A stretch of 64,000 nt of DNA, from NCBI GenBank assembly GCA_038727135.1, contig JAVYWL010000001.1, forward strand, positions 128,001 to 192,000, given 5' to 3'. This DNA is from Candidatus Bathyarchaeia archaeon. Its GTDB lineage: Archaea; Thermoproteota; Bathyarchaeia; Bathyarchaeales; Bathycorpusculaceae. Of the stretch, positions 32,120 through 51,683 are shown piece after piece (the stretch's first letter is position 1; every line of letters starts with the position of its first letter). The notes under the pieces are model-generated. The model worked only from the letters and a program-made list of their open reading frames with translations, had not been told where the DNA came from and did no database searches. A program made the position numbers and the translations under genes.

Positions 32120-33205
32120 CTAAGTTATATGTGGAGAAGGTTTTACGTCAGAGGCTTTAGCCCAGAAAAGGTAAACTTTTGTCTGCATTAGGAAGCTTAG
32201 CCTTTTCAACACTTTTGCCAGCCCTTCACTGTTTAGCTTTTCTATTTTTTCTTTGAATTCCGTGTGGCTTGGGTAGGCTTTGCTTGCTGGTATGATTCTT
32301 TTTCTTGGGATGACGCCTTTCTCTGAAAGTTCTGTTAGGATTTTTATGATCTCGCTTCTGCCGATTTCGTTTATCTTTTCTATGTTGCATTTCTGGTTTT
32401 GGAGCATGTAGGGCTTAAAGCCTAGGGCTTCCAGCTTTTCTATGGCTTTTTGCAGATGGGGGTTGGGTTTGCTTTCTGCTATTTTTTGCATTCCAGCCCT
32501 TTCAAAGAAGGGGTTGTATTTTGCCATAACTGCCAGTGTTTCCACGTAGGGTGTTCCAGCTAATGGTAGGGTTTCTTTGACGAGTTTTGTGCCTAAGCCT
32601 ATTGCACGGTATTTTGGGTGTATTATTACTCGGGTTATTGTGCTGACTTGTTCTTGGAGTTGTTGGTGGTTTCCTTTCCAGACTTGGCTTCTGCCGAACA
32701 TTGTTGGCGGCGGGTGGCTGTAGACGATTACTCCGCATGTTTCTTCTTCGCGTTTCATGGCGAAGATTTTTCTTGGCGGTGGCAGGTGGCTTGAGCGGTA
32801 GTGGAATTGGCTTAAAGCCTTGTAGTCGGCTGTTGTGCCTTGTTCTATACGTATTTCTCGGGTTAGGCTGCACTCTTTTGCTGGTGTGTTTGGTTGGTGG
32901 TGGACTGTTATTTCTTTGCCTAACCTCTTGTGGATGTGAACTGATGGGTTTAGGTCTTCGTGGAGGTCTGTGTGGGTTGTGGCGGCTATAACTGTTTTTG
33001 CCATGCGTCTTGCTGTTTTTTGGAGGTTGTATGCCACTATTTTTGCTGTGTCGCGGTCTAGAGTTGCTGCGAACTCGTCTAGTATCCAGAATTGGGCTTG
33101 GCTTTCTATTAGTTTGGCGATTTTGTATCGGTATTTTTGTCCTTCGCTGAGTTGCCGATAGGTGCGGAGGAATAGGAAGGCGTCATTTAGGCCTACTAGG
33201 CTGAG
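32120..33205 (-). pseudogene. 5'-truncated ABC-ATPase-GNAT acetyltransferase fusion (COG2401-like)
   Basis: The frame upstream of the GTG at 33037 reads LSLVGLNDAFLFLRTYRQLSEGQKYR...FWILDEFAATLDR (ABC signature and Walker B) up to a TAA at about 33208. Walker A is missing. GNAT motifs FHYR, RVIIHPKYRAIGLG, MAKYNPFFERAG are intact. Confidence 0.8.
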
Positions 33206-33974
33206 TTAGCCATGTGTTTTGGTCTTCTGCCCATTCTGCTTGCATTTCGCGTTGCCATCGCCACTGGTCGTTTTCCAGCTGGCGCCTAATCTTTTGGAGG
33301 ATTTCGCGTTTTAGTGGTCCGTTGGGTTCTGTGGCTTGTTGGTGGGTTACGTGGCTTTTTGCGTAGTCGCTGTAGGCTGGGTCGTGCCAGATCCGCCAGA
33401 AGATGCTGTCTGTGTGCCATGGCGTTGATGTGCATATGAATTTTCCGTTTGTTGCGCTTAGTGTAAAGAGTATGGCGTCGTAGAGTTCTTTGTCGTTTGG
33501 TATAAAATTGAATTCGTCTGCGTAGACGATATGCAATGTTGGTCCGCGTATTGTTTCCGGATTGTTCGGATAAGCCTCTATTATGCTTCCGTTTTTTAGG
33601 CGTACCGCCGTTTGCTGGGGTTTTTCGTATAATCCTTTTGGGAGCCTTTTGAGGAGCGTGTTTATTCGGCGGACGACGTGTTTTGTTTGGCGCCAGCTTG
33701 GTCCAACTATGCCTATCTGCGTGTTTGGGTTTGTTAGTGCGTAGTGGAGTAGGAGGGCGGATACTGTTTGGGTTTTTCCGCTTTGACGGCACCATCTGGC
33801 GGCTGTGAATTGGCTGGTTTGGAACTGGCGGATTAGGTCTGTTTGGTACTGGGTTGGTTGGAAGCCTAGGATTTGGGTGCAGAATTCTATTGGGTCTTTT
33901 GGTATGGGCGGCGTTAGGGCTTCAGCAAGCGCCTGTTCCAGTTGGCGGAGTTTTTGTTTTTGTCTTGGCTTCAT
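33183..33974 (-). pseudogene. terminase large subunit, ATPase domain only (nuclease domain missing)
   Basis: RWCRQSGKT Walker A, IRGPT, YADEF Walker B, STP coupling motif, REMQAEW; ends at 263 aa. Confidence 0.85.
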
Positions 33975-34951: not shown

Positions 34952-35029
34952 ACACCATCATCAAACAGAACACAAGCAAGGATTGAATATAAAGAGAGGC
35001 AAAATTCAGAAATTTACAAATTCATAAAC

Positions 35030-35527
35030 TTAAGGGATACGAACGCCTTTGGGAATTATAGTTGAGAAATCTATTTCTTTTTTCCGTTCATCCCATTGAG
35101 CAATAAAGATATGCCTATCGCGCGAATAGTAAAGTATATCATTCCTTCTGGCAACATTAAAAAGAAGATTTATTGAATTTGAGACTCCTTTTGGTGAAAG
35201 TATTATAGAATACAATGGTAAGGCAACCTTGCTGTATCCTAACAATTGGGAAAAATCCCGTAGGTTTATTCTACCGAGTTTACATTCAATAAGTCCCAAA
35301 TGCGCTTCTTTGTCTGATTTTACAACAACCCCGGTTACATCAACTTCAACCTCATACGTTTGGTGGTCAGGAAAGTATACATGAAAACCTTTCTCAAGAA
35401 GCCATTTTGAGAGAACCTTTTTAGAAGTATCCTCGACACATATTCTAGCATTTTTAAACTTACTTTGCAACGTTTTCTTGAACCACAAACAGACATCAGG
35501 ATACATTTCTTTCTCTTTCTTATACAA
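35030..35527 (-). CDS. small PD-(D/E)xK nuclease-like protein
   Basis: N-terminal E (KEKEMY), EVDVTG, IECK, then SQLLGY helix (Q..Y motif typical of Mrr/RecB-like nucleases). Confidence 0.7.
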   Translation of the reverse strand: MYKKEKEMYPDVCLWFKKTLQSKFKNARICVEDTSKKVLSKWLLEKGFHVYFPDHQTYEVEVDVTGVVVKSDKEAHLGLIECKLGRINLRDFSQLLGYSKVALPLYSIILSPKGVSNSINLLFNVARRNDILYYSRDRHIFIAQWDERKKEIDFSTIIPKGVRIP

Positions 35528-35534
35528 TTCCTTT

Positions 35535-36515
35535 TCACTTCTTCTTTTTAGATTCCATCCATTTGGTCAGTCGTTTATGCCTTTTAACGAAATTTGCGTA
35601 TCTTACGCAACCCAAATCCGCGCAAATCTGCCAATAAGAGTCGTAATGCTTTCCACGAATTTCTAAAGGTAGTTTCTCAGAATTTTCAGCAGGATGCTTC
35701 GGTTTAGTTTTTCTTCTTTTTGGCGGATTGCAAAAGTTTGCCTTTGCAAACCCCTTCGTCTTATTATATTCTGCAAGTTCTTCAAGTATTTCTTGTTTAT
35801 GGGACATATAGAAACCTATTTTCTCAAAATCATCTGCAAAAATTTTTATTTGGTGCTCTCTCGCCCAAGCATCCTTCCGTCCAGCCTTATATTCCCTTAA
35901 ACTTGGGTCTCTAGTATTAGGGTGACCCCACTGAATAACATCTACAGGAATTCCCAAATGATCTTGCAAAAGATGACAAATTTGAACCGGCAAACGCCAA
36001 TTGGATGGACTGTTAAGGACATCCAGATAAACCCTACATTTTCCCCACCTATTTCTGTTCGCCCACCTGGCAGATCCAGCAACATCGGCAAATCCGCGGA
36101 TAAATTCCTTTTTAATGGAATCGCTTGACTCAAAAATTTGGTCGGGAATTTCGAACTCATAGTAAGAGCTTCTACCTTTCATAAGCATTCTGATATTCCG
36201 CAAAAACATGGTATTTTTTAATGTTTCGAGTACAAGATAGACCGAATGTTCGCTCTCAGTTTTTCTAACGTTAACATCTGCAAGTTCATTAACCCTATTT
36301 ATGGCTCTGTCCAAGCTTAACAATATTTTATCTTTTTGTGTTATCTTCTTCTCTACACCTTCAACCTCTAAATTCCTAAAGGGAAATTCTATGGAAATTC
36401 GCTTTACTCTTCCTTGATCAGATATTTCGCCCCTAGCGGTTATTAATCCAATAAAATAAGCCACATCTTCATCGATATAGTCAAGCGAGGTCTTCTTCGA
36501 CTTCAATTTCTTCAA
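35535..36515 (-). CDS. double LAGLIDADG-like domain protein, third-party to or subunit of a restriction system
   Basis: AYFIGLITARGEI and KEFIRGFADVAGS resemble the two LAGLIDADG helices; IPDQIFESSDSIKKEFIRG matches the usual block before helix 2. Confidence 0.65.
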   Translation of the reverse strand: MKKLKSKKTSLDYIDEDVAYFIGLITARGEISDQGRVKRISIEFPFRNLEVEGVEKKITQKDKILLSLDRAINRVNELADVNVRKTESEHSVYLVLETLKNTMFLRNIRMLMKGRSSYYEFEIPDQIFESSDSIKKEFIRGFADVAGSARWANRNRWGKCRVYLDVLNSPSNWRLPVQICHLLQDHLGIPVDVIQWGHPNTRDPSLREYKAGRKDAWAREHQIKIFADDFEKIGFYMSHKQEILEELAEYNKTKGFAKANFCNPPKRRKTKPKHPAENSEKLPLEIRGKHYDSYWQICADLGCVRYANFVKRHKRLTKWMESKKKK

Positions 36516-37344
36516 CCCTATTCTTCCTGAATATTAAGATGTATTCATGAACTTTATTCACAATGAAAACATACGGATAGCCCAATGGTCGCAAGTTACT
36601 GTACTCTTTACGTCTATCCCAAATTATTATATCTTCAAGAAGAAAACCTATCTCCGCCATCATATTTGCTACGCGCATATGAAACGGAATGAACTGAGAA
36701 CCTTGACGAATATCCATAACAATAACGATACATCGTTTACCGTTTTTTAAAACAACATAAACTTTTTCAAAAATAGACTTCAATTCATCCATAAACTTAT
36801 TGAAATCTGAGATGTTCCCGAGATCCCTTTCTAAAGACGAATATGGTCTTGGTTCCTTATAGTCTGCCGTCCTCTTTCTTGTATGAATGTTCCAGTAGGG
36901 GGGAGAAGTTATCACTAAATCCACAGAGTTAGGTTTTACATACATCAATAGGTTTTTGGCGTCCTCACAATAAATATCAGGATCTTCAACACCAAGGTGT
37001 ATAAGCTTCTGTTGAGATATCCTCTTTTTTGCAAGCTCTACAAAATCTGGGTTGATATCAAAACCAATTCCCTTCCGTTCCAAGTCTCTAGCAGCAACTA
37101 TTGCACTACCACTACCCATAAAGGGGTCTAAAACCACATCACCTTTTTTAGTATATATCTCAATCAGTCTTCGACATAATTCCACAGGAAACATAGCTGG
37201 ATGTTTGAGTTTAACTTCTTCCCTTGACTTTACAATATCCCATATGCTAATAGAATATCTCTCCCAAGTTTTCCCATCTAACTCGTTCAACTTCTCCTTT
37301 TTCTTAATGGTTGCCTGAACTTCCTGGTCATTCATAAGCCTCAC
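36481..37344 (-). CDS. amino (likely N4-cytosine) DNA methyltransferase
   Basis: HPAMFP, VLDPFMGSGS (motif I), DLVITSPPY (motif IV), IIIWD..K, HEYILIFRK. Confidence 0.92.
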   Translation of the reverse strand: MRLMNDQEVQATIKKKEKLNELDGKTWERYSISIWDIVKSREEVKLKHPAMFPVELCRRLIEIYTKKGDVVLDPFMGSGSAIVAARDLERKGIGFDINPDFVELAKKRISQQKLIHLGVEDPDIYCEDAKNLLMYVKPNSVDLVITSPPYWNIHTRKRTADYKEPRPYSSLERDLGNISDFNKFMDELKSIFEKVYVVLKNGKRCIVIVMDIRQGSQFIPFHMRVANMMAEIGFLLEDIIIWDRRKEYSNLRPLGYPYVFIVNKVHEYILIFRKNRVEEIEVEEDLA

Positions 37345-37436
37345 TACTCTAAATTGTATTTGTGTAGGTTATTTATAAGTTGAGATATTATGAAAGTGCA
37401 AGGTAAGAGCGCGGTGGTTTAGGGTAAAGTGAAAGC

Positions 37437-37679: not shown

Positions 37680-38594
37680 ATGAAAATGAAACCCAGAAAG
37701 TTTGAAGGCATATTTGTCCCATGCATTACGCCTTTCACGGAAAAAGGCGAAATAGACTTTGAAGCACTACGCACATGCACACGGTTCTGGATTGAAAATG
37801 GCATAGATGGGCTTATGCCTTGTGGCAGTAATGGCGAAGCCCCCTACCTGGCGAGGGAGGAACGCCAAAAAATAGTCGCCACAGTCCTAGAAGAGGCTAA
37901 AAACAGCGTGAGGGTTGTTGCTGGCACTGGTGCGCCCAGCACATGGGAAACCATACGCCTAACAAGAGACGCCAAGGACTTGGGCGTTGACGCCGCAGTA
38001 GTGGTTACACCCTACTATTTTAGGCTTTCAAACCGAGAACTAATAGCCCACTACAAAGCTGTTTTAGAGGCCGTAGACCTGCCAATAATCCTATACAGCG
38101 TTCCAAAGTTTACAGGCTACGCCCTAGAACCAGCCGTAATAGCAGAACTCGCCAAAGAATATTCGAACGTGGTGGGCGTGAAGGACAGCGGCGGAAACAT
38201 AGCCACAATAACGGAGACAATACGCCTAGTAGGCGAAAAAATGGCTGTTTTGGCTGGAACAGCTGACGTTGTGCTGCCAACACTAATGTTGGGAGGAAAA
38301 GGCGCCGTAATAGCCGTAGCCAACACCTACCCTAAGCTTTGTGCAAACCTATACAAAGCCTACAAGCAAGGCAATATCGGAAAAGCGGCAAAACTTCAAA
38401 GGACAATAACCCACATAAACGAAGTTCTAGTCAGACGCTTCAACCAGCTCTCAGCCATAAAAGAAGCAATGCGGATGTTAGGATTGCCTGGAGGCTACCC
38501 GCGCATGCCAACCCTACCCCTAAGCGATGTGGAAAAAGCCGAAATAAAAAGCCTACTGGAAGCTGTCAAGGTGGAGGCGGAAACTGAAGCCTAA
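37680..38594 (+). CDS. dapA: dihydrodipicolinate synthase family aldolase
   Basis: ITPF, CGSNGE, AGTGA, VTPYY, ILYSVP, GVKDSGG (Schiff-base Lys). Confidence 0.85.
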   Translation: MKMKPRKFEGIFVPCITPFTEKGEIDFEALRTCTRFWIENGIDGLMPCGSNGEAPYLAREERQKIVATVLEEAKNSVRVVAGTGAPSTWETIRLTRDAKDLGVDAAVVVTPYYFRLSNRELIAHYKAVLEAVDLPIILYSVPKFTGYALEPAVIAELAKEYSNVVGVKDSGGNIATITETIRLVGEKMAVLAGTADVVLPTLMLGGKGAVIAVANTYPKLCANLYKAYKQGNIGKAAKLQRTITHINEVLVRRFNQLSAIKEAMRMLGLPGGYPRMPTLPLSDVEKAEIKSLLEAVKVEAETEA

Positions 38595-38769
38595 GCCTCT
38601 TTATTAGGGCTTTCACCCGCTCCCCATCCCTCAAGTAATCCTCGATTATGGCGTTTACAAGCTGATAAATCCTCAAATCATTCAACAATGCCAACTTCCG
38701 AACCTCCCGATGCAAGTCTTCACGAACTTCCACGACTGTCCTCCTAAAATCCCTAGACAACCCGCGCAC
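38566..38769 (-). CDS. ribbon-helix-helix DNA-binding protein
   Basis: RTVVEVREDLHREVRKLA...IYQLVNAIIEDYL pattern; last gene of the tail operon. Confidence 0.65.
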   Translation of the reverse strand: MRGLSRDFRRTVVEVREDLHREVRKLALLNDLRIYQLVNAIIEDYLRDGERVKALIKRLRLQFPPPP

Positions 38770-40369
38770 CCACCTTATAACGGCTCAAATGGTCTGTCCT
38801 GCTGCGAAGCACATACAGGTAATCCGCCAGCATTGGCGTTTCCCTTCCAAGCTCCAGTGTAACCTCAAGCGTCTGCGTTTTGGCGTCAACATAGTATTCC
38901 ACGCTTTCAACACGGAAATAGCCGCCAACACCCTCGTTTGGTAGTTCCATATAAACTCTGTCCGCGGCAAGAATTGGCGTAACGCCATAGTCTAACACTG
39001 TGGTTTTTATGGTTAACGATTCTGTTGGGTTCTTGTAATAGTTGAGGAGGGCTTTAGCCCTTAAAAGGCATTCATTGTCGCTTTTCAACTCTTCATCAGT
39101 TTCTGTTAGCTCCCTTAAGCCGTAGGATGATTGGCTGCCGGCGTCTTCTTGCATGGCGTAGTAGCGGCTGTCCGACAGGTACAGGTGGTCAAGATAAAGC
39201 CAAATGTCCTCACATATCTGGCTGAAATAAATGATGAAGTCTATGCCCGTGAAGGGGTTACGCCAGTCAGCGTTGCCAACCTTGTTCCATGAAGGCTGGT
39301 CTGTCCGTAAAACAAGTTTGCCCCAAGTGTTTGCCGGCGGAAGCATAGGCTTAATGTCCATGTCAAAGTGGTCGTTGCTGCTTTGCCAGAGGCGACAGTA
39401 AGCGTTTGCTAATCCGTAGGCTGGATAATTCCCCCACATAATCCAAGTGTTAATCTGTTTGAAGCCTTCTGGACCACTAAACTTCAGATTGTTTAAGCTG
39501 CGGTACAAGTAGAGTTGAGTGCCTCCGCCATAAGCGTAAACACAGTAAGCGTCCGAATACTTCTTCTGCCCATCCTGCGTCACATGGTCTGAGTAGGTGC
39601 TTATTCCCCCGTTAGACTGCCAGCCAACCGTGGACTCTGTCCAACCATCCTCATTAGCGTCTGAAGGCAATTTTCTTTCGGCTGCTCCGTAAACGTGGAT
39701 TCTGTTTCTTATGCGGCTAATGTCCTTGCGGTATTCATACTCTTCAATAATTTCGGAAAGGCTTACAGGCGAAGTTTTGCTGTTCCGCTTGAAAAACTCG
39801 AATTTTCCGTCTGGAGCCACTCGGAAATCGTAGCCTATAACGCCATTATAGTCGGCTGAATCGGCAATATAACGGATTATGTCAAAAACAGGCGTGTTTT
39901 CATAATTCAGCTTAACATAAGTTGTGGTTGTAGTCTCTACAAGCTCTGTGCTGTCCCGCGTGTGGCTCAAACCAACAAGGTTATCCAGCAAATATTTGAC
40001 TATATCCTCGCCTTTCATGTTTTCAAAAATGCCCGTAAAAACTCGACGGAAGAGGCGCTCTCCAACACATCTTCCGCCCACACGGATATAATGCTCGGCT
40101 GGCGTGTTTTCGTATTTTAGGCTTTCAATTCGGCAGGTGATTATCTTGGGAACATTTGTGCCTCTCCCGATGGAAATTGAGCCATCCATGCCAACAGTCA
40201 ACGGAATAGAGCCGCCGGGGCTATATTTTCCATTCCAGTTTTGCAGTGTAAGCTCGAAGCTGCTTACTTCTTTTGTGCAGCCGAGATGCACTCGACACTC
40301 GATAATGTCGTTTTCATCTATGGAATAACTGCCGAAAGCAACACTTATTCGTGGAATGTCAACGCTCAT
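38753..40369 (-). CDS. tail tip / baseplate hub-like protein with inserted beta-sandwich domain
   Basis: Follows the tape measure; GYDFRVAPDG, IRNRIHVYG, SQSSYGLRE, RAKALL, FRVESVEY pattern of hub/tail proteins; central aromatic-rich insert. Confidence 0.65.
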   Translation of the reverse strand: MSVDIPRISVAFGSYSIDENDIIECRVHLGCTKEVSSFELTLQNWNGKYSPGGSIPLTVGMDGSISIGRGTNVPKIITCRIESLKYENTPAEHYIRVGGRCVGERLFRRVFTGIFENMKGEDIVKYLLDNLVGLSHTRDSTELVETTTTTYVKLNYENTPVFDIIRYIADSADYNGVIGYDFRVAPDGKFEFFKRNSKTSPVSLSEIIEEYEYRKDISRIRNRIHVYGAAERKLPSDANEDGWTESTVGWQSNGGISTYSDHVTQDGQKKYSDAYCVYAYGGGTQLYLYRSLNNLKFSGPEGFKQINTWIMWGNYPAYGLANAYCRLWQSSNDHFDMDIKPMLPPANTWGKLVLRTDQPSWNKVGNADWRNPFTGIDFIIYFSQICEDIWLYLDHLYLSDSRYYAMQEDAGSQSSYGLRELTETDEELKSDNECLLRAKALLNYYKNPTESLTIKTTVLDYGVTPILAADRVYMELPNEGVGGYFRVESVEYYVDAKTQTLEVTLELGRETPMLADYLYVLRSRTDHLSRYKVGARVV

Positions 40370-41274: not shown

Positions 41275-41800
41275 CGACTTTCACGCTCCATTCGAGCTTT
41301 TTCCTCTTCCGCTTGGCGGTCCAGCTCGTTTAGGATTATGATGAATTGTTGGATGGTCTTGGCTGGTTGTCGGGCGAGCTGGCATGGTGTCCAGCCGAAC
41401 TCTTTGCATAGGCGAAACTCCGTTAACGCTTGGTTTGGTTTTTGGCGTCTGATGCTGCGGATAAAAAAGCTGTTTCCTCAAAGCTGACGCTGTTAAGCCT
41501 ATTGACAATTTGGCTGAATAACTCGCCGAGAGCTATTGGAACGCCCTTTTCTGGGTCTTCGCTGAGAAGCTTTTCAAGGCTAATGGGTTGGTGGGGTGGC
41601 TGCTCTTTAAGCGAAGCCATTATTGTTTCTGCTTGGATGGCTATGTAGTCGCTGCTGATGACTTGCCCTGTCAACGGGTGGTATTTTGTGTATTTTTGGA
41701 TTATGCGGCTCCGCCTCGCCCATGTCAATTCTTGGAAAACGTATTTGCCAGCATACTCCTTGCCGTACTCTTCGCCTATCACAACGGTTTCTGTTCGCAT
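41259..41800 (-). CDS. tail assembly chaperone G (41800-41423) and -1 frameshifted GT product (ends 41259)
   Basis: ATG 41800 overlaps the tail-tube stop (TAATG); slippery T TTT TTA at 41468-41462; the -1 frame is open for about 68 codons. Confidence 0.8.
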
Positions 41801-42702
41801 TAGGCTATCACCACATCCCTTGCTATGAAGCGGGCTTTTAGGTTGACGAGGTCTTCTATGCGTGTTGGTGTTGTCACGCTTTCCCATTTGCAGTACTTGA
41901 ACAAGGCGTAGTTGGAGTCGCCAAGCCCAAATTTTAAGCTGAACTCGCCGTCGTTTACAACGTCTTCAAACTCACCTTTGTCCTCAAACTCGAAAGTTAA
42001 TTCTCCACTTAATTCGCGGTGGCGGGCTGGCAAGTATTTAAGCAGGTGTCCGCTTGTTGTGCGGATGACTGGCACTGGTTTAAGATTGTTTTCTATGGTG
42101 AATTTCCAGTCTGTGACTCGCTCAACCGCCGCTAACCCTGAACCGTCTGCCGTGCCTCGCTGAACAAAGCATTGATGGTATGGAACTGCTCCGGCATAGT
42201 CTGCGTATGTGGCGCCTGTGATTTTGCCAGTCCCAACAGCAACGTCCCGCCCAATAAGCTCAACAGTTGCCTTAACAACCTCGTCTATGCCGCATTCAAC
42301 AGTTAGCTTGTCTACTCGCATGCCCTTGTAGAGGAGGCTGATAATGTCTGTGGCTGAAGTGAATAATCCCTTGTAGTAGAGGATTTGTATGCTTAGGCTG
42401 TTGAGGGTTTGCACATGCTGAACAAAGCTTATAGGCGCGTCGCTGGGTATTATGTGGCTAATCTTTAATGCTGGTTTTAGCAGTCCCCGTTTTAGAGCCG
42501 CCAAGTCTCTGTTGCCTATGCCTCGCACTTGAATGAGGCTTGGATTTAAAGAAGGCTCAATGTTTTCGGCGTTTACTCCAAGCATAGAAGGGTTGGATGG
42601 TGTCTGCCCATACGTGGATTCTTGCACATAGTAGACGCGGCACTCATGCGCCCCATATGTGTCAACCACTTTCATCACGCTCCCAAATTCTCGAATACCC
42701 AT
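41800..42702 (-). CDS. tail tube (major tail) protein
   Basis: YVQESTYGQTP N-terminus, YKGMRVDKLTV, WKFTIENNL, RELSGELTF; position between terminator and chaperone; start probably near 42675. Confidence 0.8.
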   Translation of the reverse strand: MGIREFGSVMKVVDTYGAHECRVYYVQESTYGQTPSNPSMLGVNAENIEPSLNPSLIQVRGIGNRDLAALKRGLLKPALKISHIIPSDAPISFVQHVQTLNSLSIQILYYKGLFTSATDIISLLYKGMRVDKLTVECGIDEVVKATVELIGRDVAVGTGKITGATYADYAGAVPYHQCFVQRGTADGSGLAAVERVTDWKFTIENNLKPVPVIRTTSGHLLKYLPARHRELSGELTFEFEDKGEFEDVVNDGEFSLKFGLGDSNYALFKYCKWESVTTPTRIEDLVNLKARFIARDVVIA

Positions 42703-48964: not shown

Positions 48965-50185
48965 TTAGGCTTCCTTCCGCCTTTCTGGAGTGGTTTCGGA
49001 GCGCTCCCACAACTCCCAACCCCACTTTGAGGCGTTCTTACGAAACTCTTCTGGGCGGATAAGCCCTAATTCGGCGGCTTTCAACATGTCTGCAACGCTT
49101 ATCTGGGGCGTCTTAGGAGAACCCCAGTTTAGGCGAACCCCAGCCTCAACAGAGTCTAGTCCAGCCTGAAAAAGAACGGGCTTGAAAATGGCGTGTTCCA
49201 CTTGCCGCTTAATGTAGCGTTGAATGGGTTTTATGAGCATATCCTGCAGCTCCAATGCGGCTTTGGCGCTGGCTTCGGTGAAGCCCGGAGTGCTGAAAAG
49301 CCTCGGCAGTGGCGTTTCACAGCCAAGATAGAACTGGTTAACAATGTAGTCGATGTAATATTCAAATCTGGCTCTGGGGTCTATTGTGAGCGGTTTTATG
49401 TCGCCTCTCCCGCTATAGAATAGCCAGACACCCTCTTCTGGGCGGCTCTTAATGGCTTTTTCAAACTTTTGGATAGTGCCGGCGTCAGCCCTCTCCAGTA
49501 GGGCTAAAACGTCTGGTCCGGCATACTTCTCAAAGATTTTTGGCATTATGCGTTCAATTTTTGCTTTCATCCAGGCGTAGGCTGGTCGCCGGTCAGAAAA
49601 GAAGGCAAGCGTATGCAATAGAACCTGTAAAACACCTGTTCCAAAACCGGAAGAGCCTAAACAGTTTATTCGCCAGTGGATAACCGCCTCTGGATTTAGG
49701 GTTTCGCCGCCATAAGCCAAGCGGAGCTTGTAACCCTCAACCTTGTATGGGATTTTCAGTCCGCCATCTTGGATTAGGCTGTACTCGATTTTTTCTACGG
49801 CGTCCACTGGCAACCGCTGGAGACCTGTGAGCCTTTCAGGTGTTATTTTGAGCCAGAAATCGTTTCCACAGGCGATTAGAACTCTTGCCATATCGCATAA
49901 GAGCATGTCCAAATTAGCCTCTTCGTTAAATTGGTCTATGACTCGTTTGGCTTCCCCAGCCCTTGCATAGTTCTCGTTTACCGTTGTGTAGAAGCCCATT
50001 CCAACGGCTGAAGCCGCCAAAAGGTCTACGCTTGCCTTGCATGCTGGATCCCGCTCATAAAGCCTCATAACATCAGCCAACGGAATGCTCGGCGTCTCGT
50101 AGACCATTTGAGGTTCTACGGAAGCGTAGCCGCTATGCCTCTTCAAAGTGAAAGCTTCAATGAGCCTTCTTAAAACGCCGCTCAT
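48965..50185 (-). CDS. portal protein
   Basis: LYERDP...SVD, LIACGNDF, VIHWRIN....GFGTG, GFTEASA, IKPIQRYIKRQVE..IF; 406 aa. Confidence 0.85.
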   Translation of the reverse strand: MSGVLRRLIEAFTLKRHSGYASVEPQMVYETPSIPLADVMRLYERDPACKASVDLLAASAVGMGFYTTVNENYARAGEAKRVIDQFNEEANLDMLLCDMARVLIACGNDFWLKITPERLTGLQRLPVDAVEKIEYSLIQDGGLKIPYKVEGYKLRLAYGGETLNPEAVIHWRINCLGSSGFGTGVLQVLLHTLAFFSDRRPAYAWMKAKIERIMPKIFEKYAGPDVLALLERADAGTIQKFEKAIKSRPEEGVWLFYSGRGDIKPLTIDPRARFEYYIDYIVNQFYLGCETPLPRLFSTPGFTEASAKAALELQDMLIKPIQRYIKRQVEHAIFKPVLFQAGLDSVEAGVRLNWGSPKTPQISVADMLKAAELGLIRPEEFRKNASKWGWELWERSETTPERRKEA

Positions 50186-50729: not shown

Positions 50730-51683
50730 CTACAGCGAAGTGCTAATGTTGACCATTTTGGCTACTGCCTTGCTGCGTAGTACGCCTAAGCCAAAGCGGG
50801 TTGTTGCCCTAACTCCGAACTCGCCCGTCCTAGGGTCTTCCCAGTCCTCCACAGTTATGTCTCTGCGGAGAAGCATGACCGCTGCCACTCTTGTGTCTAT
50901 GGCGTAAGCCACTCCGTTGGGCACTAGGGTGCTTGCCAAAACCTTCATGCCTAAAACGCTGCCGACAACGCCCCGCTCCAAATCCACATGTTCGGAAGGC
51001 AGGTACTGCGCATGAATGAACTTGTCATCGTTAAGCAGTTGGTGGAGTTGAACCTCGTTTAGGGCTAGCACTGTTGGACGCCAGTTTTCGCCCCTAACAG
51101 CATTGTGAAGCTTAACAACGCCAGACCAGTTTAGGGCTTGCCCATTATTGTCTATTGGGGCGCCGCCAGCCAAATCCGCATTGGCAATAGCCCCATACAT
51201 GGATAGAATCTTGTTGGTTTCAGCCTCGCCTAGGGCTCTTCCAACCTTCTCAGTCATGGTTTCCATAACATTCCATGTGGCGTCTTCCAAAAACTCCCTA
51301 GTCCAAACTTCAGAAGCCTCAGCCACAATGTTTGTGTAAACGTCCACGGTGCTGACCTTCTTGCCACTAAGCCTCGTGTAGGCGCCCTCAGCATAACGAT
51401 AAGCCACAGCCTTCTCATCTAACGGGAATCTTTCCATGGCTTCAGTTGTGGGACGCACCATTACGATTTCTCTTCCAATCATTTCTGGGTAGGCAGCCTC
51501 AACCAGCGTATCATGCATATGCCCAATGGCGCCAACGGTGTCGCTGAAAAGCCTCTCTTTAAGGGCTACCTCACAGTAACGCCTCAAAAAAGGGTGCGAC
51601 GAAGCCCTTCGGCTCAGATTCTCCATGAGCTGGCGGAACTCGCTGTCCGTCTCCATCAAACTCTCAAAAAGTCTCGGTTTCAC
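50730..51683 (-). CDS. major capsid protein (HK97 fold)
   Basis: AEGA, TREFLEDA..NV......VGRALG..E, GSVLGMKV..S..VPNG, RFGLGVLRSKAV; 317 aa. Confidence 0.9.
   Translation of the reverse strand: MKPRLFESLMETDSEFRQLMENLSRRASSHPFLRRYCEVALKERLFSDTVGAIGHMHDTLVEAAYPEMIGREIVMVRPTTEAMERFPLDEKAVAYRYAEGAYTRLSGKKVSTVDVYTNIVAEASEVWTREFLEDATWNVMETMTEKVGRALGEAETNKILSMYGAIANADLAGGAPIDNNGQALNWSGVVKLHNAVRGENWRPTVLALNEVQLHQLLNDDKFIHAQYLPSEHVDLERGVVGSVLGMKVLASTLVPNGVAYAIDTRVAAVMLLRRDITVEDWEDPRTGEFGVRATTRFGLGVLRSKAVAKMVNISTSL

Follow-up and report, generated by a model that had tools for sequence, protein, structure and literature searches.

A mobile cassette in a Bathyarchaeia genome with a predicted restriction endonuclease divided between a LAGLIDADG-fold protein and a PD-(D/E)xK domain

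Can a homing-endonuclease scaffold without its catalytic acids serve as the DNA-reading part of a restriction enzyme? The question is raised by three adjoining genes in a stretch of 64,000 nucleotides (nt), here called the window, from a Candidatus Bathyarchaeia archaeon (assembly GCA_038727135.1, contig JAVYWL010000001.1, positions 128,001 to 192,000). The three open reading frames (ORFs), which were taken from the ORF list of the window, all lie on the minus strand. Gene 1 (36481-37344) encodes a DNA methyltransferase of 287 amino acids (aa), while gene 2 (35535-36515) and gene 3 (35030-35527), for which fold searches were also used, encode a double LAGLIDADG-fold protein of 326 aa, proposed as the target-reading subunit, and a stand-alone PD-(D/E)xK nuclease domain of 165 aa, proposed as the cleavage subunit. 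The original prediction, made from the letters of the window, was of a two-subunit restriction enzyme in which gene 2 reads and gene 3 cuts. Our analysis supports this reading, still as a prediction, and adds natural fusions of the two genes to its evidence. The three genes probably make up a mobile restriction-modification cassette of a Type II-like kind, in which the endonuclease would be split between a catalytically dead LAGLIDADG reader and a PD-(D/E)xK cutter.

Most likely, gene 2, a domesticated homing-endonuclease scaffold without either metal-binding acid, would bind the target site, which is probably asymmetric, and would recruit gene 3, which would hydrolyse the DNA, with methylation by gene 1 shielding the host's own sites. 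One gene 2 protein may be combined with a dimer of gene 3. The contact between the two proteins, DNA binding by gene 2, cleavage, stoichiometry and target sequence are inferred from the evidence described below.

Folds and motifs of genes 2 and 3

Gene 2 gave no match in Pfam, NCBIfam, PADLOC, PHROGs or the PDB sequences, and its 774 relatives at E ≤ 0.001 are all unnamed. We modelled it with AlphaFold2 from 29 sequences (mean predicted local distance difference test score, pLDDT, 89), and Foldseek returned 41 PDB matches for the model at E ≤ 0.001, every match listed being a LAGLIDADG protein. In the structural alignment, gene 2 was 19-21% identical to intein endonucleases, versus 9% to WhiA. 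The LAGLIDADG fold first suspected from two short motifs was thus recovered by both Foldseek and structural alignment, and gene 2 does have it, as judged from its model. A cluster of gene 2 look-alikes in the Atlas is automatically named 'putative DOD-type homing endonuclease domain-containing protein', and the likeness of fold is therefore visible to some pipelines.

The two motif helices of gene 2 read FIGLITARGE (residues 21-30) and IRGFADVAGS (139-148). According to the parts of the reviews that were available, the penultimate position of LAGLIDADG motifs is a metal-binding acid in active enzymes; in gene 2, the catalytic acid positions are held by R28 and A146. We compared these positions among 72 relatives from 80 loci, which were obtained by scanning one genome per species for relatives of gene 2. 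The first position is arginine in 56 of them, lysine in 6, histidine in 4, asparagine in 2 and a gap in 4, and the second is alanine in 44, threonine in 25, serine in 2 and asparagine in 1. No aspartate or glutamate was found at either position among the 72 relatives; therefore the loss of the canonical site, which had been noticed in the window protein, is a family trait of gene 2. The WhiA of T. maritima, as far as its description was available, also has arginine at the first acid position. The C-terminal extension of gene 2 holds a C262/H274/C298/C303 cluster that is common, and not universal, among the relatives.

Gene 3 carries D63, E81-C-K83 and Q94xxxY98, and many of its relatives start at M8. 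At E ≤ 0.001 we found 136 word-indexed relatives and, by profile search, 346 representative clusters. Genes 2 and 3 are real genes, with 774 and 136 relatives, respectively, at this threshold. D63 is kept in 74 of 74 aligned sequences and E81 and K83 in 69 of 74, and the motif residues of both proteins are invariant or nearly so in the family alignments. The structure model of gene 3 reached a pLDDT of 93 and had no Foldseek match at E ≤ 0.001; in the VIA wide fold search, nearly all of the best 50 rows were PD-(D/E)xK nucleases, and the best of these fold matches were to cleavage-only modules. The D...ExK and QxxxY motifs originally read from the translation are hence borne out by conservation and by the VIA fold matches. 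Searches of Pfam, NCBIfam, PADLOC, PDB sequences and PHROGs gave nothing usable, the sole match being a weak one to NucS (E 0.01, NCBIfam).

Judged by these models, gene 3 is predicted to be a bare PD-(D/E)xK domain like that of FokI or of the small subunit of BspD6I. The original claim that it has no recognition domain of its own agrees with the matches to cleavage-only modules, and its small size, from which the claim was made, is by itself no proof. As in Type II systems, the cassette has a candidate endonuclease gene, gene 3, which adjoins the methylase gene, is inherited with it and keeps an intact catalytic motif.

The gene pair, its fusions and its methylases

The 80 loci come from Bathyarchaeia, Caldarchaeum, Asgard archaea, Nanoarchaeota, Chloroflexota, Planctomycetota, Bacteroidota (cultured strains included) and others, and the public locus closest to the window cassette (L001) lies in a Bathyarchaeia metagenome-assembled genome. 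Examination by tblastn of whether the three genes occur together elsewhere revealed a gene 3 relative in 73 of the 80 loci and a gene 1-like methylase with the SPPY motif in 70. Five of the seven loci without gene 3 (L016, L023, L024, L058 and L071) end at a contig edge, and 4 of the 10 methylase misses are likewise contig edges. Where it was found, gene 3 lies directly downstream of gene 2 in the same orientation, with two exceptions: in L018 it is on the opposite strand, and in L060 a 628-nt gap with an extra ORF separates the two genes. The gene order is conserved across two domains of life. Gene 2, which in the window is within neither an intron nor an intein, sits between methylase and nuclease genes across the 80 loci.

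Two gut phages were also among the matches of the gene 2 search. A Lachnospiraceae phage (L082, PV036410.1) carries a methylase, a gene 2 relative and then an ORF comparable to gene 3 in size only, with an excisionase gene adjoining. At a Chloroflexi locus (L066:763-4131), the gene 2 module forms the C-terminus of a 1122-aa protein, which is followed by an SPPY methylase and a 1404-aa helicase/exonuclease protein; the N-terminal 780 residues of the 1122-aa protein had no match in Pfam or the Atlas and no similarity to gene 3.

In five of the 80 loci (L063, L067, L068, L072 and L075), genes 2 and 3 are a single ORF of 541-546 aa, and by alignment all five fused proteins keep R and A at the acid positions together with an intact D...ExK...QxxxY. 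An independent representative library gave the same arrangement, with 3 of 150 listed gene 3 representatives being 543-557 aa long and carrying gene 3 at the C-terminus, and in the fusion P0357 residues 3-339 align to gene 2 (E 1e-60) and residues 407-552 to gene 3. A word-based search for longer gene 3-containing proteins found none, a blank that is to be read as a miss, since fusions were found by other routes. The five fused proteins also have a CxxC...CxxC zinc-ribbon insertion in LAGLIDADG domain 1 (residues ~43-75), for which the L067 protein showed weak Pfam matches to the TFIIB and Lar zinc ribbons.

Downstream of each fused gene lies a free gene 3 paralogue (L063:4677-5174, L067:7629-8135, L068:7587-8096, L072:7394-7864 and L075:4302-4820). 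These paralogues are ~156-172 aa long and match gene 3 with an hhalign probability of 98%; their ExK has become N-x-N, N-x-S or N-x-E, and their Q has become E. Judging from these substitutions, the free paralogue in the fused clade looks like a pseudo-nuclease partner, and its presence beside the fused gene is a hint that the nuclease domain acts as a dimer.

Gene 1 matches PF01555 (N6_N4_Mtase) in Pfam with an E value of 1.1e-40, in two permuted stretches, and the MTase_II models of PADLOC with E values down to 2.4e-53. Its translation has FxGxG and then SPPY at residue 147, and SPPY is kept in 68 of 68 complete gene 1 relatives adjoining gene 2 homologues. The SPPY motif goes with N4-cytosine methylation, and because FxGxG precedes it, gene 1 is, by its motifs, probably an N4-cytosine methylase. 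The S-adenosylmethionine-binding and catalytic motifs expected of a Type II restriction-modification methylase are therefore both found in gene 1.

The methylase partner is exchanged between clades around a constant gene 2-gene 3 pair. An EcoRI-type adenine methylase and a C5 methylase replace the gene 1-like methylase next to the same pair in L035, L047, L079 and L080, and a 6.5-kb plasmid of Lactiplantibacillus plantarum (L081, NZ_CP060181.1) carries a fused EcoRI-type and C5 methylase, a gene 2 relative and then an ORF matching gene 3 in size. This plasmid cassette adjoins a YafQ-type toxin gene. The trio had originally been described with one SPPY methylase, which holds for the window and not for the family, as 30 of the 80 loci carry two methylase activities. 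These 30 consist of 4 loci in which a Dam-like gene precedes the gene 1-like methylase, 12 with a Dam-like domain fused to it, 9 with a gamma-class N6 methylase, 4 with the EcoRI-type and C5 methylases and 1 with a DPPY-type methylase. According to the part of a Type II review available to us, an enzyme with an asymmetric site is usually accompanied by two methylases, which may be fused or separate proteins.

Two loci, L069 and L076, have no methylase and lie away from any contig edge, and gene 2 is broken in both. In L069 (484-1407), a gene for a PLD-type (NgoFVII-like) nuclease has taken the place of the 5' portion of gene 2, and gene 3 is intact. Further genes were seen within some cassettes. 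Those of Bacteroidota begin with a 104-aa HTH_3 protein resembling a controller (L032:3454-3768) and have an unassigned ORF of 124 aa (L032:5603-5977) that separates gene 2 from the fused double methylase. In those of Firmicutes, a gene for a 358-aa protein (L079:4923-5999) is inserted after the C5 methylase and before gene 2; this protein has a NOV_C domain (E 5.8e-08) and may be a further nuclease-like component.

Gene 3 could alternatively be a complete, small homodimeric Type II endonuclease, with gene 2 being a WhiA-like regulator or an accessory outside the enzyme. We consider this improbable. The fusion of the two genes in five loci and in P0357 is unexpected for a regulator and its target gene, and the best fold matches of gene 3 are to cleavage-only modules. 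Separate helix-turn-helix (HTH) regulators are present in L032 and L079, and gene 2 is therefore not needed as a controller. At the C-terminus of gene 2, where WhiA has its HTH, no WhiA or HTH family was matched in Pfam at E ≤ 1, and the last 70 residues carry the Cys/His cluster instead. We prefer the split endonuclease to a regulatory role because of the fusions, the constancy of the pair next to exchangeable methylases, the decay of gene 2 and the separate HTH regulators.

According to another explanation, the pair is a selfish homing-type nuclease or a repair-type nuclease, for example one for mismatch or deamination repair tied to cytosine methylation, that travels with methylases. Such a role seems very improbable to us, since most cassettes, including that on the 6.5-kb plasmid, hold no other endonuclease candidate, and loss of the methylase always goes with a broken gene 2, which is what a toxic restriction gene would lead one to expect. 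The swapping of methylase types around the constant pair and the position of the cassette outside any intron or intein also speak against it.

Several points weigh against a split endonuclease with a dead reader. The binding of gene 2 to gene 3 or to DNA, and any cutting, are predictions here; the complex prediction for genes 2 and 3 scored 0.00, which counts neither for nor against binding. Two loci, L066 and the cassette remnant L074, hold gene 2 relatives and are truly without gene 3. The window itself has a single methylase, which, if the site is asymmetric, leaves protection of the second strand unexplained. Likewise, the loss of ExK in the free paralogues leaves one recognisable active site per complex, so that two-strand cutting is unexplained. 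Moreover, a characterised member of the family may exist, REBASE being outside our search. Finally, G141, D144, H198, P199, E220, H221 and K240 of gene 2 are invariant in 72 of 72 relatives, despite the differing methylases, which could mean a catalytic or other role beyond base reading.

These invariant residues and the single active site left in the fused clade bear on a further possibility, namely that the genes do form a restriction cassette in which gene 2 is not dead and cuts or nicks one strand through a non-canonical site made of H198-P-N200 and E220-H221-Q222, with gene 3 cutting the other strand. Besides the invariant H198, P199, E220, H221 and K240, Q222 is kept in 71 of 72 relatives. 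A second site would explain double-strand cutting in the fused clade, which keeps one intact D-ExK site per gene set, and the large subunit does cut in the known heterodimers BtsI, BsrDI and BspD6I, at least in the portion of the literature available on them. On the other hand, the canonical LAGLIDADG acids are found in 0 of 72 relatives, gene 2 shows no known nuclease motif or family match (Pfam, NCBIfam, PADLOC and PDB sequences), and the model's secondary structure places the H198/E220 cluster at the base of the beta3-beta4 loop of domain 2, which we also count against a live gene 2. We think it rather unlikely that gene 2 cuts, and the dead reader with a separate cutter is retained below.

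Transfer and genomic setting of the cassette

In blastn searches, the cassette is 81-83% similar at the DNA level to four loci (L002-L005), which belong to other Bathyarchaeia, Caldarchaeum and Nitrososphaerales. This similarity runs from 35046 to 37335-37387, and the flanking sequences are unrelated. The similarity to these distant archaea stops at the cassette edges, which shows that the cassette has been transferred as one unit. We delimit this horizontal-transfer unit, by the blastn edges and a trough in GC content, as 35046-37387, with no strand assigned. Gene 2 was found in 4 of 61 related genomes, its own included, and in 2 of 13 further members of its genus; many of the genomes are incomplete.

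The cassette had first been noted as a tightly packed, AT-rich trio in a virus-like region, and all parts of this description hold. With TTG as its start, gene 2 shares 35 nt with gene 1, and gene 3 follows gene 2 after a gap of 7 nt. The GC content over 35001-37000 is 0.363 and 0.370, versus 0.43-0.49 in the adjacent kilobases. The neighbours match phage families, namely the N-terminus of a terminase large subunit (33183-33974), a portal (48965-50185), a capsid (50730-51683) and tail proteins (38753-40369 and 41800-42702); therefore the cassette is part of a provirus-like region in an archaeal genome of 1.55 Mb. The terminase ORF, of 263 aa, covers just the N-terminal ATPase portion of a large terminase, and a DHDPS gene of cellular type (37680-38594) separates the cassette from the tail genes. 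The provirus-like element may be rearranged or decayed.

Known analogues and meaning of the cassette

We examined whether the cassette belongs to a restriction family that is already characterised, and genes 2 and 3 hit no nuclease model in Pfam, NCBIfam or PADLOC. By analogy, heterodimers of the BspD6I/BtsI type and FokI appear closer to it than BslI, which had been offered as the model two-subunit enzyme. In the available part of the Type II review, the large subunit of BsrDI, BtsI and BspD6I reads the site and the small one only cuts. The large subunit of BspD6I/BstNBI, BtsI and BsrDI has its own PD-(D/E)xK nickase and a FokI-like recognition domain, whereas gene 2 has a LAGLIDADG fold without the acids and, unlike the BspD6I-type large subunit, gave no PD-(D/E)xK match in Pfam or the fold searches. 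PADLOC and the PDB sequences showed no sequence similarity between the cassette and heterodimeric Type IIS or IIT enzymes. BspD6I-type systems have two methylases, one for each strand of the asymmetric site; 30 of the 80 loci carry two methylase activities, and the window cassette has one methylase. In the Type IIS enzymes FokI and PaqCI, a recognition module is joined to a non-specific cleavage domain; the candidate reader of the cassette has a different fold, and in the window the modules are separate proteins. BslI is a poor analogue and was set aside, not on sequence comparison, but on its description in the part of the review available to us as an alpha2beta2 enzyme with a palindromic site and Cys4 zinc motifs. 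The Zn(Cys)4 of BslI also differs from the C/H/C/C cluster of gene 2, a comparison made from the review's description only.

Among LAGLIDADG proteins, WhiA/DUF199 (3hyi, 8dy7) has a C-terminal HTH and acts in transcription, whereas gene 2 is found in a methylase-nuclease cassette and is fused to the nuclease in some lineages. The archaeal intein and intron enzymes TliVMA, PI-PfuI, I-Tsp061I and I-DmoI keep the acids and live in inteins or introns, and gene 2 does neither. The nearest parallel in design is an engineered fusion of inactive I-SceI with PvuII (PMC3258161), of which the part available to us describes an inactive LAGLIDADG DNA-binding module that serves a PD-(D/E)xK nuclease, as is proposed for the cassette. 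In contrast to the natural and widespread cassette, that fusion was engineered, has a specificity of 18 bp and is not paired with a methylase.

Our search of the full-text literature, with subscription journals, supplements and REBASE outside it, revealed no paper in which a restriction system has a component with the LAGLIDADG fold. The word LAGLIDADG occurs 0 times in two restriction reviews (PMC4081073 and PMC12707154), and in the available part of a review from 2012 on the relatives of homing endonucleases, WhiA is the only one named for the LAGLIDADG fold. Genes 2 and 3 are likewise unnamed in the family libraries Pfam, NCBIfam, PADLOC and PHROGs. The new part would be the scaffold of the proposed reader; the restriction system itself would be of a known kind.

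On balance we are inclined to see in these loci a widespread mobile restriction family with a dead LAGLIDADG reader and a detachable, FokI-like PD-(D/E)xK cutting domain, of which one clade uses an inactive copy as partner. Bench tests would be easy to set up, because relatives occur in cultured Bacteroidota and on the 6.5-kb Lactiplantibacillus plasmid. Cultured carriers are Alkaliflexus imshenetskii DSM 15055 (L032), Winogradskyella epiphytica CECT 7945 (L044), Bizionia sediminis KCTC 42587 (L040) and, with plasmid p9, Lactiplantibacillus plantarum P9 (L081). Restriction enzymes fall into a few groups by catalytic fold, and the variety of their sequence readers is just as small. If the reading is true, the family would have a recognition architecture that is unrecorded for restriction enzymes, and would be the natural counterpart of engineered meganuclease-nuclease fusions, that is, a natural two-part nuclease whose reader comes from the best-understood reprogrammable DNA-binding fold. 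It would also represent a second, independent domestication of the homing-endonuclease scaffold and would link selfish homing enzymes with restriction systems in evolution.

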